A stretch of DNA of 26,880 nucleotides from a virus (IMGVR_UViG_3300005805_000392:1-26880), one strand, 5' to 3'; counted from the stretch's first letter, positions 1-26,880 are shown. The notes: generated by a model not told the origin, from the letters alone. A program made the numbers and translations.

Positions 1-1119
1 TGTATCTTCATGCTCATGGTGATCTCCATTGATGCTATAGAAAACAAACTCAAGAATATTTTGTGAATTTGCTAATTTTACAACACCCTTGATAACAGAA
101 GTTGAATCGTCAATTGTCTGTATATAATTGTAAGCATTGGCACCAAAGCGATCCAGATAACTAATACAAATTGCACTAGCATTGTTCAATAATGCGTCAT
201 TTACTTGAAGATATCCTGATCCTGGATTATCGTGCACTGTGTTAGCGTTGAATTTATATTCAAAAGTTGCGCCACCAAAGGATCCAGGTTGACCTTGCAC
301 ACCTTGGAATCCCTGATTACCTTGAACACCTTGAAATCCTTGAGCACCCTGTTGACCTTGTGAACCTTGAGTACCCTGAACACCCTGCGGTCCTTGTGGT
401 CCAGAATCACCAGTTCGATCAAATGATACAAGTGTGTTCTTTTGATTGCTGAAAGAAGATGCAGGTCCACTGGTGTAATCAAGTCCGATTACATAATAGT
501 TTACATTCGCAGTGGCAACAAGTCCAATCGAATCTAACTTGAATATTGCATAGTCAGCACCATTGTTGATGTCGACAATGCGAATAAATGCCTTGTCTAC
601 AGCGGTTGAGTCTGCGACGTGTTCTAGATATGGACCAGTATTTGCACCAGGGAAATCTTCACTGCTAATATACATCTCTGTTGCGAGAGTGAAGTCAGCA
701 GCATTAAGTTTGAATGTTCCGCTTACAGGCTCAGTGTTAGCAGTGTTGAAGTCGAAGAAATAATTAAATGACACACCACCAAAGAGACCTTGGAATCCTT
801 GTGAGCCTTGTGTTCCCTGTAAACCTTGAGCGCCTTGAACTCCTTGTGCGCCTTGCACACCCTGTGCTCCTTGAGCACCCTGAGCGCCTTGAGCTCCCTG
901 TGCGCCCTGTACTCCTTGAATACCCTGTGCGCCTTGCACACCTTGAGCACCCTGTGCGCCTTGTGCTCCTTGCGATCCCTGTGAACCTTGTGTACCTTGC
1001 GGACCTTGTGGTCCAGTTGGACCAGGTGCGCCTGATTTTAGGTTAAGTTTGCCAACTTCCTGTTGGTTGTTGACATTGACAGAACCAACAGTATTTTGAT
1101 TCTTGACTTCAATCTTCAT
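1..1119 (-). CDS. Collagen-like (G-X-Q)n fibre protein with repeated globular domains; 3' end lies beyond the window (not in the ORF track)
   Basis: Manual translation from ATG 1119, which overlaps the upstream TGA (ATGA): [29 protein letters not shown](GXY)28[21 protein letters not shown]...SFDRT-(GXY)15[21 protein letters not shown]...HHEHEDT. The frame stays open for 373 codons to the window edge. Confidence 0.9.
277..411 (-). repeat. 9-bp period collagen-coding repeat, 15 Gly-X-Y triplets
   Basis: [45 protein letters not shown]; the + strand shows ccttgNNNN periodicity. Confidence 0.9.
781..1032 (-). repeat. 9-bp period collagen-coding repeat, 28 Gly-X-Y triplets
   Basis: Runs GAP GPT GPQ ... 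GAQ/GVQ ... GFQ GLF, with degenerate ccttgtgca/ccttgagca units. Confidence 0.9.
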
Positions 1120-1448
1120 CGACTAACCTGTGGTGTTACAGTTATAATTCCTTCTAATATTCTAGTAACAACACTAGTATTCGATGTCATCTTTACATCA
1201 TAAAGATATCTACCAGGAGTAATATTAGCAGTGTTCGCGGAGGTGATAGATAACTTGACGTTGCCGTTAGCAGCGTCTACAATAGTTACTGTGATATTCG
1301 CAGTTGCGTTAGAGGAATAATAGGACTTTCTTATCTGAGATTGAAAGGTATAATTGGCTACATTGATAGCGGTTCCATCATCGTTGGTTAGGTCGATAGA
1401 GGTTTCAAATGTAGTTCCTTGATCAAGAGTAAGTTCTGCGTAAGCCAT
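1116..1448 (-). CDS. Small conserved virion structural protein (beta-sandwich, BppU-N-like) typical of T4-like fibre regions
   Basis: 110 aa with motifs [25 protein letters not shown] and [16 protein letters not shown], which I recognise from cyanophage-like T4 structural genes. GAGAG RBS lies upstream. Confidence 0.8.
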
Positions 1449-1479
1449 TTTCGCTCTCTATGAGTGTGAGGTGTCATAG

Positions 1480-1487
1480 TATTTAGG
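1480..1487 (-). promoter_or_regulatory. Putative T4-type late promoter (CCTAAATA)
   Basis: TAAATA core sits in the 45-bp gap (1449-1493) upstream of the 110-aa gene and the second fibre; it is a variant of T4 TATAAATA. Confidence 0.6.
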
Positions 1488-1493
1488 TTTTCA

Positions 1494-2096
1494 TTATGGT
1501 GTTATAGTCAAAGTTGATGGAGAGGACATATCAGATGTAACATTAGTCCAATACCATAGCGTATAATTATATGTAGAATTGTATGTCGGAGTCACTGCAA
1601 CACTCGCTCTAGTATAAGTTGTGCTACCTAAAGTTATTGATGTCCAAATTCCTGGATTAGAAGTGTAATCCCCAGATAATTCAAAAATTAAACGGTTTCC
1701 TTCTCCCCACCTATAAAGACCGAAAAAAGTGGTGGATGCGGTGCTACTTACACTAGTTCCGTATTGAGTTTGAGTTGAGGATCCGAATGGTCCTCTATTA
1801 AACCCACTTAGAACTAAATCTACTCCACCCAAATAGCCGTAGTAAGTATTATTAGTCAAATTTGGAAAAGATCCAGAAATAATCGTTTGTTGTTGTGGAG
1901 TTATAGTTGTAACAAAATTTTTGCTAGCACCTAAAAAATTTCTTATAGTTATTGTGCCACTAGATGGAATGCTAGAATTTACCCCATGATTTCGAACATA
2001 TCCAGCTCCTCTTCTGTAAGAGGTTAAAGTATTAGGACCACTGAATTCAGTCTTAATATCACTTAATGCTATTGTCCCAGAAGAAGGTAGAGCCAT
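1494..2096 (-). CDS. Putative fibre-tip adhesin / receptor-binding protein (functional analogue of T2/S16 gp38)
   Basis: N-terminus MALPSSGTIALSDIKTEF...YRRGAGYV...IPSSGTITIRNFLGASK matches the attachment module often found directly after S74-chaperone fibre genes. The C-terminal part is rich in Ser, Thr and aromatics. Confidence 0.65.
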   Translation of the reverse strand: MALPSSGTIALSDIKTEFSGPNTLTSYRRGAGYVRNHGVNSSIPSSGTITIRNFLGASKNFVTTITPQQQTIISGSFPNLTNNTYYGYLGGVDLVLSGFNRGPFGSSTQTQYGTSVSSTASTTFFGLYRWGEGNRLIFELSGDYTSNPGIWTSITLGSTTYTRASVAVTPTYNSTYNYTLWYWTNVTSDMSSPSTLTITP

Positions 2097-2098
2097 AA

Positions 2099-25587: not shown

Positions 25588-25589
25588 GA

Positions 25590-26762
25590 CTAGTAGCCTT
25601 GAGTAACGAGATCTTTGTGAATGATTTCTGTTTCTTGGAATTTCAAAACCATTTCAATCTCAATTGGAGTACCATCATAATAAGTTGCAAATTGACCAGC
25701 TGTAACATAGTTTACATCAACTCCAGTACACACGCAAGTGGTTATCTTGAACAGTTTATCATTGAGACTGTTGTTGTAATAGAATGCGATATCAAATTCA
25801 GATGGTGGAATGAAGTATCTAGCACCACCATCACCAGGAACGAGTTCTGGTGCTGAGTGGAACTTGAATGTTCTAATGATGTCAATTATAGTTTGGGATT
25901 CTTTAGCACTTTTTGGCGAAAATTTGAAATCAAACTGAAATGTTCTTATGCTCGGCGAATTGAACAATACTTCTATCTGCGGATTCTTAGCATAGCCATA
26001 ACTTGCTAAGTTTACTCTTTCAATATCTGCACCAAACATTTCTGATTTTGCAGCAGCTGCTCCTGCTATCTCAGCAACTCCTCCCCCGAACGCAGAGGCT
26101 TCAGGTAAATCTGTACCTCTACCAGCACCAGTCATTATATCTTTTACTTCACTCAGAGTTCCAGTGAATGATCCACCTGCAGCTTGACCAGTTTGTGCTG
26201 CTAAACCCGCTGTACCCATTGCTTCTGTCATAGAAACTGCATCATAGGTCAAGGAGTATTGTTGCATGATGTTATTTGGAACGTATAATTTGATGGATTG
26301 TTCAGTTCTTCTTGTTTTTCTAGTCACATCTAAACTAGCCAAAATTCCTGTGGTCAAAGCACCAGTAGCCAATCCAGGCAACGCAGATCCGATCAAACTT
26401 GCAGTAGTTGCTCCGCCAGAAGCCACTTGTTTCAATCCACCACTAATGGCACCGATTGCTGCAACTCCAGCGCCTACTAATCCAGCTGTTCCTAATACAC
26501 TAAATGGATCAGTCGTACTACCTAATTGATTTGTTGCTGCTCGGTTTATATCCACTTGAGATAATTGATCAGATACAGATAAACTACCATTCTTGACGTA
26601 TGAAGATTTTGCAGGCACATTGATATTGAATAGTATGTAGTGTGGATGTTCGAATCCACCCACATCTAACGGATATTGTAGAGAAGGTGCTGCCGAATAG
26701 CGATCCCCATAAAGATCTGATAGCGGACCTGTTGGGAAATCTCCGATAATTCTTGCGCCCAT
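25590..26762 (-). CDS. gp48: Baseplate tail-tube cap gp48
   Basis: LQYPLD..HYILFNI, I.LYVP, NPQIEVLF..P..RTFQFDFKFSPKS.KE...I..II.TFK.HSAP, F.PPSEFDI, CVCT.VDVNY and G.P.EI.M.L.FQETEI. Confidence 0.9.
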   Translation of the reverse strand: MGARIIGDFPTGPLSDLYGDRYSAAPSLQYPLDVGGFEHPHYILFNINVPAKSSYVKNGSLSVSDQLSQVDINRAATNQLGSTTDPFSVLGTAGLVGAGVAAIGAISGGLKQVASGGATTASLIGSALPGLATGALTTGILASLDVTRKTRRTEQSIKLYVPNNIMQQYSLTYDAVSMTEAMGTAGLAAQTGQAAGGSFTGTLSEVKDIMTGAGRGTDLPEASAFGGGVAEIAGAAAAKSEMFGADIERVNLASYGYAKNPQIEVLFNSPSIRTFQFDFKFSPKSAKESQTIIDIIRTFKFHSAPELVPGDGGARYFIPPSEFDIAFYYNNSLNDKLFKITTCVCTGVDVNYVTAGQFATYYDGTPIEIEMVLKFQETEIIHKDLVTQGY

Positions 26763-26781
26763 TTATTCTTCCTAGAATTGA

Positions 26782-26789
26782 ACTAAATA
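26782..26789 (+). promoter_or_regulatory. Putative late promoter (ACTAAATA) for gp4
   Basis: TAAATA core ends 5 nt before the gp4 ATG (26795). Confidence 0.6.
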
Positions 26790-26795
26790 TTTATA
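26788..26795 (-). promoter_or_regulatory. T4-type late (gp55 sigma) promoter TATAAATA driving the baseplate operon
   Basis: The + strand tatttata reads TATAAATA on the minus strand, an exact match to the T4 late consensus. It lies 25 nt upstream of the gp48 ATG with an AGGA RBS in between. Confidence 0.8.
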
Positions 26796-26880
26796 TGGCA
26801 TATTCAGGACGTTTCTCACCAAGGAATCCCAAGAAGTATCTTGGAGATCCCACCAATATCTGGTATCGTAGCCTTTGGGA
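26795..26880 (+). CDS. gp4: Head completion protein gp4, 5' fragment truncated by the window edge
   Basis: MAYSGRFSPRNPKKYLGDPTNIWYRSLW matches the T4 gp4 N-terminal pattern (MAYSG...P.N..KY.GDP..I.YRS.WE); divergent from the baseplate genes as in T4-like phages. Confidence 0.9.
   Translation, partial: MAYSGRFSPRNPKKYLGDPTNIWYRSLW

Follow-up and report, generated by a model that had tools for sequence, protein, structure and literature searches.

The subject of this analysis is a 26,880-nucleotide stretch of viral DNA (IMGVR_UViG_3300005805_000392:1-26880; GC content 39.2%), referred to below as the window, from which several short palindromic words, above all GGCC, CCGG and TTAA, have been almost completely lost, and the possible relation of this loss to a Tet/JBP thymine-modification cluster found in related phages. 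The window holds structural genes only: all of its 16 genes lie on the minus strand and form, by their PHROG and Pfam families, a T4-like baseplate and tail-fibre block (Table 1). No nuclease or methylase gene was detected among them, and no tRNA was found in the window. The best match of the gp6-like wedge protein in a cultured phage is to the Methylophilales phage Melnitz (41%), while uncultured relatives reach up to 70% identity, with none above this value among the matches listed. Family membership points to a virulent-type, T4-like double-stranded DNA phage with a lytic lifestyle, and T4-type replication genes are present in its relatives.

Table 1. Features of the window (aa, amino acids; ORF, open reading frame)
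Feature	Coordinates	Strand	Remarks
Region-wide loss of words	1..26880	.	GGCC 0, CCGG 0, A/T-flanked AGCT 0; TTAA 13
TTAA cluster at the tail-fibre end	704..2066	.	8 of 13 copies
29 retained CAGCTG	2878..26488	.	2.5 times the shuffle expectation; first copy at 2878, last copy at 26483
Collagen-repeat tail fibre gene, truncated at contig end	1..1119	-	phrog_6320; 3 TTAA
110-aa conserved protein, tail-fibre assembly-like	1116..1448	-	phrog_1084
200-aa ORF without family	1494..2096	-	5 TTAA in 603 bases, the unpurged rate
813-aa collagen-repeat tail fibre	2099..4540	-	
Small virion protein	4530..4781	-	phrog_473
Two large structural ORFs	4741..12101	-	4741-7944 and 7941-12101, both phrog_358
Baseplate wedge subunits	12113..17921	-	12113-13723 (phrog_438), probably gp8-like, and 13728-17921 (phrog_17744), probably gp7-like, both by gene order
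Baseplate wedge, gp6-like	17928..19982	-	phrog_219
Baseplate wedge, gp25-like	19984..20376	-	phrog_261
730-aa ORF without PHROG or Pfam family	20376..22568	-	
Hub/spike, gp5-like	22571..23638	-	
Tail protein	23645..24907	-	
Wedge	24907..25587	-	
Tail-tube cap	25590..26762	-	

Exact counting recovered no GGCC, no CCGG and 13 TTAA in the window, in agreement with a first-pass annotation of the sequence, which had given the same TTAA positions and the same TTAA-free gaps of about 8.5 kb and 10 kb. When synonymous codons were shuffled within each of the 16 genes (300 runs), the means were 19.2 for GGCC (minimum 8), 31.1 for CCGG (minimum 17) and 150.5 for TTAA (minimum 120), such that the observed counts lie below every single shuffle. 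The maximal-order Markov expectation per strand is about 22, 13 and 100 respectively, and base composition alone predicts 40 GGCC and 226 TTAA. Because the counts fall far under both the shuffle and the Markov expectation, codon or dinucleotide bias is insufficient to account for the loss; these were the controls that the first-pass annotation had proposed, and the depletion it described is real. At an observed/expected ratio below 0.1, taken as elimination, stand GGCC (0/19), CCGG (0/31) and TTAA (13/150). The set is wider than these three words, to which the purge had at first been confined: AGCT (48 versus 108), GTAC (53 versus 95) and TCGA (53 versus 92) are likewise under every shuffle, and six 6-base palindromes are found at less than 0.3 of expectation, namely AACGTT (1/10), AAGCTT (0/10), ATCGAT (0/9), TACGTA (0/6), TAGCTA (0/8) and AGTACT (2/7). 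Every purged word in the window is thus a 4- or 6-base palindrome, i.e. an orthodox Type II site, and HaeIII, MseI and AluI are among the enzymes that recognize them. CCGG is the site of HpaII/MspI (PMC6449724). A single RGCY motif as the target was rejected, as GGCT/AGCC is normal (1.12), and RGATCY too occurs at a normal frequency in the window (42 versus 37 expected).

The loss of AGCT depends on the flanking bases. In coding sequence, AGCT with C and A/T flanks (0/22 observed/expected) or with A/T on both sides (0/31) is absent, whereas CAGCTG, in which G follows the T on both strands, is found in excess (29/12); G and C flanks (6/9), G and A/T flanks (10/27) and two C flanks (2/6) fall in between. 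Each of the 48 AGCT of the window has a G or C directly after its T on one strand or both. A strand-specific (RNA-level) avoidance of AGCT was rejected, as the asymmetry of the window was not seen again across relatives. The first-pass annotation was half right in describing the pattern as selective and not a general avoidance of palindromes: GTAC and TCGA, which it listed as present, are depleted, as is AGCT, and it overlooked that sites are kept or lost according to their TG/TC content.

The remaining TTAA copies are strongly clustered, with 8 of the 13 within the first 2096 bases (binomial p 1e-6). This tail-fibre end (1494-2096 and 1-1119) has TTAA at the unpurged rate and is still without GGCC or CCGG. 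It is likely to be a recently exchanged stretch, and the combination of unpurged TTAA with the absence of GGCC and CCGG suggests a donor inside the same phage group.

Relatives were collected with the gp6-like gene as marker; their genomes or contigs are denoted by G and their loci by L. A survey of 63 partly redundant gp6 loci of at least 7 kb, among 80 matches listed, in which a word was called low at or below one quarter of its first-order Markov expectation, showed GGCC to be low in 57, CCGG in 48, TTAA in 18, GGCC together with CCGG in 42, and all three in 11. The same threshold, applied to a broader sample collected with a capsid gene, gave only one of 47 with all three words low. The triad is therefore not a shared property of these phages, as had been raised for checking: relatives purge other combinations. 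The nearest relative, L561 (gp6 70%), has in 22 kb no GGCC, no CCGG, 22 CAGCTG and the same AGCT flank rule as the window, but keeps TTAA (131 copies). G307 has purged only CCGG (0/148), G306 has purged GGCC, AGCT and GATC (2/406) but keeps CCGG, and G025 and G027 have purged GGCC, CCGG and AGCT, G025 being also without ACGCGT, CCGCGG, GCTAGC, GGTACC, TACGTA and AAGCTT. In G001 (complete, 172.6 kb) the set comprises GGCC, CCWGG and 53 six-mers at or below 10% of expectation. In a polymerase tree with 42 rows, loss of TTAA is seen at three places and loss of ACGT at two, and TTAA status differs between phages with 97% identical polymerases. The 53 six-mers of G001 and the missing sites of G025 amount to more specificities than one phage plausibly encodes, and many specificities reshuffled between lineages are the pattern to be expected from changing hosts with Type II systems. 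Thus, of the two origins offered by the first-pass annotation, host restriction fits best, although its three words do not behave as the unit that a single three-system host clade would imply.

Broad purges are seen in two sets of phages. The GC-rich sister clade formed by G001 (L081-L089), G002 and G005, which lacks the Tet/JBP cluster described below, has erased GGCC, CCWGG and CCCAG, and with them dozens of restriction-type words 6 to 12 bases long, some of them interrupted or asymmetric. An unrelated T4-like group, G020 (L217-L220) and L123-L130, entirely lacks GGCC, AGCT and ACGT and most 6-base palindromes, with no sparing of sites by context. The signature of Melnitz differs in that GATC, CGCG and CCGG are low.

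The purge reaches into proteins. The dipeptide Trp-Pro forces TGG CCN and hence GGCC; it is absent from the ORFs counted in G001 (25.7 expected), and four copies are found against 18-23 expected in G025, G027 and G306, while Pro-Trp stays near expectation. In G307, which keeps GGCC, Trp-Pro occurs 18 times against 18.6 expected. This loss indicates that selection against GGCC extends to the proteome, which also bears on a mutational alternative, namely that orphan C5 methylases of the host mark GGCC, CCGG and AGCT and that deamination then removes these words with no selection involved. The deamination neighbours AGTT/AACT (1.28) and CTGG/CCAG (1.17) are indeed above shuffle expectation in the window, but GGTC/GACC (0.91) and TCGG/CCGA (0.88) are not raised, TTAA contains no C, synonymous escape would enrich the same neighbours, and the Trp-Pro loss needs selection; such erosion is largely refuted and hardly credible as the cause.

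Most relatives possess a gene cluster that might explain the flank dependence. Its slot is bounded by an AAA gene and a conserved 279-aa gene. A Tet_JBP dioxygenase comes first, and behind it stand either GATase, amidoligase-like, GNAT-like, amino-acid:DNA transferase (AADT) and P-loop kinase genes (the amidoligase-like and GNAT-like labels being motif readings) or a glycosyltransferase gene; no C5 methylase is present. Of 22 relatives' loci that span this slot, 17 have the cluster; it is missing from four GC-rich loci and from L762, where an N6/N4 methylase (L762:13347-14093) occupies the slot and the 15 kb contain no AGCT and three CCWGG. The adduct genes are of several types: AADT in G025 and G306, glycosyltransferase in G027 and G308, and TAGT in G307. 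Near-identical dioxygenases are combined with these three types, GT-B in G308 (L792-L796, L803-L807), AADT in G306 (L777-L784) and TAGT in G307 (L786:8520-9320), and the footprints differ at CAGCTG. A 443-aa neighbour with a weak ParB match (E 0.004; ParB_N/GmrSD_N look-alikes under 0.9) is found in 16 of 58 clusters and not in the other 42. Shielding of TpA by this ParB-like gene was rejected, as G025 has the gene yet purges GGTACC, TACGTA and GCTAGC. Complete absence of TTAA was observed in 9 of 11 contigs with the GATase, amidoligase, AADT and kinase cluster that lack the 443-aa GIY-YIG/ParB-like gene, and in none of 47 contigs with other types of Tet cluster (Tet loci L592-L671); the TTAA-free Tet contigs stand at three places in a gp45 tree and may reflect shared hosts. 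The gp6 of the window belongs to a starred clade of 11 rows that also contains the Tet-positive G307 and the GC-rich group without Tet; the Tet-positive G306 and G025 lie outside it. This placement among Tet-positive branches makes presence of the cluster the likelier ancestral state, and the genome from which the window derives is accordingly predicted to carry it.

The composition of relatives with the cluster is consistent with a shield over certain thymines. CCWGG is kept (6-23 copies) in all 17 Tet-positive loci, whereas CCWGG, CAGCTG and CTGCAG are all absent from the four GC-rich Tet-less loci. Among 6-base palindromes containing TG or TC almost none are purged in Tet-positive genomes (G025 0/28, G027 1/28, G307 0/29, G308 0/26), as opposed to 10/27, 11/26, 7/30 and 10/25 of those without either dinucleotide. 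The Tet-less genomes purge the TG/TC palindromes as well (G001 15/29, G005 9/29). In L561 the two classes stand at 0/15 and 5/17 (p 0.03). G306 has 52 CAGCTG for 56 expected against 6/575 for the other AGCT classes. The surviving GGCC of G025 (7), G027 (8) and G308 (20) are all TGGCCA, a context that makes up about 40% in unpurged relatives, and the surviving Trp-Pro are coded TGG CCA in 23 of 23 cases versus 28 of 45 in four controls. The TG rule was drawn from these counts before the NTG preference of a phage dioxygenase, discussed below, was met in the literature.

Several observations weigh against this shield, or limit it. In the window alone TG/TC palindromes are purged in 1/17 versus 5/15 of the others, which is not significant (p 0.06), and ATCGAT (0/9) and TCGA (0.57) go the wrong way, so that protection by TC in the window is doubtful; TC, moreover, joined the rule only afterwards, following the 6-mer counts and PMC6449724. 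The Tet-positive G304 lacks TGTACA (0/18). G306, also Tet-positive, has purged GATC (2/406) and has few CTGCAG (18/60) and GTGCAC (8/30); over all its 6-base palindromes no TG/TC effect is seen (5/23 versus 9/28), and three of its seven coding GGCC lie outside TGGCCA. G308 has but a single CAGCTG in 197 kb though it keeps TGGCCA, which implies that any shield depends on the adduct or the host. The comparison contains few independent events: apart from L762, the genomes without Tet belong in essence to a single GC-rich clade whose hosts probably differ, and G025, G004, G008, G033 and G291 are related to one another. Enrichment of the TG dinucleotide was rejected as a marker, as it is high in unpurged relatives too, and Melnitz was discarded as a clean Tet-less control, as its genome has a distant Tet homolog with a C5 methylase next to it. 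Finally, the window itself carries no modification or host-range gene.

These points bear on a simpler account in which plain avoidance of host restriction operates with no modification by the phage, and AGCT in the CAGCTG context is spared by an overlapping host methylase or by the flank preference of the enzyme. A Ca. Methylopumilus bin methylates GMAGCTKC, HCAGCTKC and BGMAGCTGD (PMC6329791, Table 3), motifs close to the surviving contexts, and such a methylase could spare CAGCTG with no phage chemistry, which likewise tells against a shield. In the window AAGCTG/CAGCTT (9) outnumber TAGCTG/CAGCTA (1), the failure of G308 to keep CAGCTG despite its Tet gene is in line with this account, and the AhpC of a relative has its closest match among plasmid records in Burkholderiales (62-64%), a host lead for relatives only. 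However, the difference between A and T flanks is absent from G025, G027 and G291, and AAGCTT, which fits MAGCTK, is at zero. The survival of TGGCCA, the coding of Trp-Pro solely as TGG CCA and the genome-wide sparing of TG/TC sites in step with Tet presence are also left unexplained, and we regard plain avoidance as an unlikely description of the whole pattern.

The other origin offered by the first-pass annotation was a nuclease of the phage itself, directed against host or competitor DNA at GGCC, CCGG, AGCT or TTAA, with survival of the phage by loss of the sites instead of their methylation. Such a design does exist in the clade for another word, RGATCY, the BstYI site. G001 encodes, before its polymerase gene, a BstYI-like protein (L086:19039-19620) whose best match of solved structure is BstYI (PDB 1sdo; E 2e-24), with the D..E-x-Q positions kept; no methylase family was found in the genome, and RGATCY is absent (171 expected). 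A second carrier of the BstYI/BglII family with no methylase (L131:7935-8459) has no RGATCY in 16 kb against 13 expected, while the sister G310, which lacks the gene at that slot, has 30 in 48 kb, and five loci in which the gene is paired with a methylase keep RGATCY at 0.2-0.5. The G001 gene resembles the BstYI/BglII family in sequence and in the absence of its word. It differs in three respects: it has no methylase, it lies in a relative, and the word in question occurs at its normal frequency in the window. In the T4-like L123-L130 a gene of this family is paired with an N4/N6 methylase directly before the DNA polymerase gene, and some RGATCY is kept. As a test of this link G306 was set aside: it has neither a gene of the BglII family nor RGATCY, but GATC is missing from it altogether. 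A lone 143-aa PD-(D/E)xK (PDDEXK_11) gene follows the dUTPase gene of G306 (L781:19336-19767) in a genome with 2 GATC versus 406, and has no homolog among the loci compared; it might represent a comparable arrangement.

For the words purged from the window no such gene emerged. Profile scans of unassigned ORFs, in subsets of G001, G025, G027, G306 and G307 selected for their size and for having no core-gene match, recovered core T4 nucleases, homing-type HNH and GIY-YIG enzymes, a conserved HNH_5, the PD-(D/E)xK protein of G306 and the BglII/BstYI-family protein of G001. Neither the window nor these scanned ORFs yielded a nuclease for GGCC, CCGG, TTAA or AGCT, at a sensitivity limited for diverged enzymes. 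Searches for methylase families, which took in G001, G025, G027 and G028 but not G306-G308, found no N6/N4 family in 19 and 5 records, no C5 in 5 and 5, and no D12 in 5. No candidate restriction-type nuclease is common to G025, which is incomplete (no match for primase, thymidylate synthase or reductase), and the complete G027, both of which have the GGCC/CCGG/AGCT signature. In the covered parts of TTAA-free genomes we found no gene confined to the TTAA-free contigs; one apparent case was rejected as a core deoxynucleoside monophosphate kinase present elsewhere too. The McrA-like HNH_5 gene, present in 5 of 18 records, was rejected as the cause of GGCC loss, as it does not track the signature: it was not found in G027, and in G029, where it does occur, locus L388 keeps both CCGG and GGCC. 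The near completeness of the purges would suit a self-encoded nuclease, and diverged restriction enzymes often escape Pfam, but G001 has lost dozens of words completely with no matching genes. We conclude that self-encoded cutting is possible in this phage group, fits the scenario of the first-pass annotation for a different word in G001, RGATCY, and is unsupported for GGCC, CCGG, TTAA and AGCT, for which it appears improbable. The conservation of HNH_5 in many relatives might also suggest that sites of host methylases are avoided because a modification-dependent nuclease of phage or host would cut methylated progeny DNA; given the lack of a detected HNH_5 gene in G027, and since this scheme does not predict TG-dependent survival, it is very unlikely to apply.

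The reading that we favour, at a probability of about 0.62, joins avoidance of host Type II restriction with a thymine-modification layer of the phage. Taken by themselves, host restriction is very probably the cause of the purge, and a modification layer in the phage of the window is probable. From what is observed directly, namely the depletion, its flank dependence, its variation between lineages and the clusters in relatives, we infer the remaining steps as follows. The missing words would be targets of host Type II enzymes that a lytic phage escapes through loss of sites. In progeny DNA the T of TG, and perhaps also of TC, would be oxidised after replication and receive a bulky group before packaging. 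The modified T might then block host nucleases at sites that contain or border TG on both strands, such as CAGCTG, CTGCAG and TGGCCA, while sites with no such T (GGCC, CCGG, TTAA, A/T-flanked AGCT, TACGTA and AACGTT) could escape by mutation only, synonymous where possible and by amino-acid change where not. The purged set would track the enzymes of each lineage's hosts, with GGCC, CCGG and AGCT targeted widely and TTAA joining the set only in those lineages whose hosts cut it.

The avoidance half of this proposal has clear precedent. Rusinov et al. 2018 (PMC6286503) report that orthodox Type II palindromes are under-represented or eliminated in phages, with 7.1% of site-genome pairs below 0.1, that avoidance is stronger in non-temperate phages, site elimination being typical for Type II sites in lytic phages, and that coliphages with and without hydroxymethylase avoid 2.4% and 55.8% of sites respectively. 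There, modification and avoidance appear as alternatives at the level of the whole genome, whereas in the window both would act in one genome and be divided by the dinucleotide context of the site.

The modification half finds its closest parallel in the Clade C1 phage T-dioxygenases of O'Toole et al. 2026 (PMC13229309), which are linked to GATase, P-loop kinase and AADT genes and preferred NTG, then NTA, in vitro. The relatives' clusters combine Tet_JBP with GATase, amidoligase-like, GNAT-like, AADT and kinase genes, lie beside an AAA gene and contain no C5 methylase; by eye their catalytic motifs match those of 5mYOX176, and the footprint points to TG, the preferred context of that enzyme. 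They differ in the length of the enzyme (430 aa versus about 300), in the ParB-like neighbour, which only 16 of 58 clusters possess, and in being known from relatives and not from the window. To be set against the parallel are that the NTG preference comes from one distant enzyme at less than 10% turnover, weak by the authors' own account, and that these authors lean to regulation and not defence. The portion of their paper drawn on here offers no genomic footprint. Tet/JBP clusters with AADT, kinase, amidoligase and amidotransferase genes are also described by Lee et al. (PMC8989533). In Flodman et al. 2019 (PMC6449724) the T-hypermodified phages M6, ViI and phiW-14 resist Type II enzymes mainly at TG/TC sites, and a flanking TG may protect. 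In those phages hydroxymethyluracil is made before replication, unlike the post-replicative oxidation proposed here, and their evidence is digestion where ours is composition. We found no paper in the open-access literature searched that links Tet/JBP clusters to a context-dependent footprint of restriction sites.

Attempts at host assignment gave little: a gp6 scan of named genomes returned a single 40% match, AhpC searches returned mostly phage-like matches with none at E 1e-60 in 250 sampled genomes, and no host lead was obtained from the Polynucleobacter and metaHi-C papers in the parts used (PMC7522526, bioRxiv 10.64898/2026.02.18.706586). AhpC/AhpD of G025 (L394:10927-12446) and G027 (L410:4472) share about 79% identity although the phages are distant in other respects, which hints at a host in common. 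Among other genes, G001 encodes a RuBisCO-large-chain-like protein (L086:12806-14047) and G027 a Tad3-family anti-Thoeris protein (L406:7384-7845). Within the window, the two adjacent phrog_358 ORFs match the N- and C-terminal parts of this 2056-position family, a split that recurs in relatives, and the 730-aa ORF sits between the gp5-like and gp25-like genes in a slot whose length differs among relatives.

The purge is mostly a known strategy; what appears to be new is that avoidance and sequence-specific thymine modification divide the sites of one genome between them. We regard it as an even bet that this uncultured T4-like phage group uses a two-part anti-restriction code, in which Tet/JBP chemistry shields TpG sites and selection erases the rest, even at the cost of altered proteins, with a role in defence and not in regulation. 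If the surviving sites are exactly the shieldable ones, defence would be the predicted function and TG the predicted in vivo target of specific gene clusters, which would bear on a question left open in PMC13229309, as far as the part drawn on here goes, namely why phages modify only some thymines. Sets of purged words could further serve to fingerprint the hosts of uncultured phages, and, if the two-part code is true, the in vivo specificity and the adduct type of uncultured T-dioxygenase clusters would be readable from genome composition.

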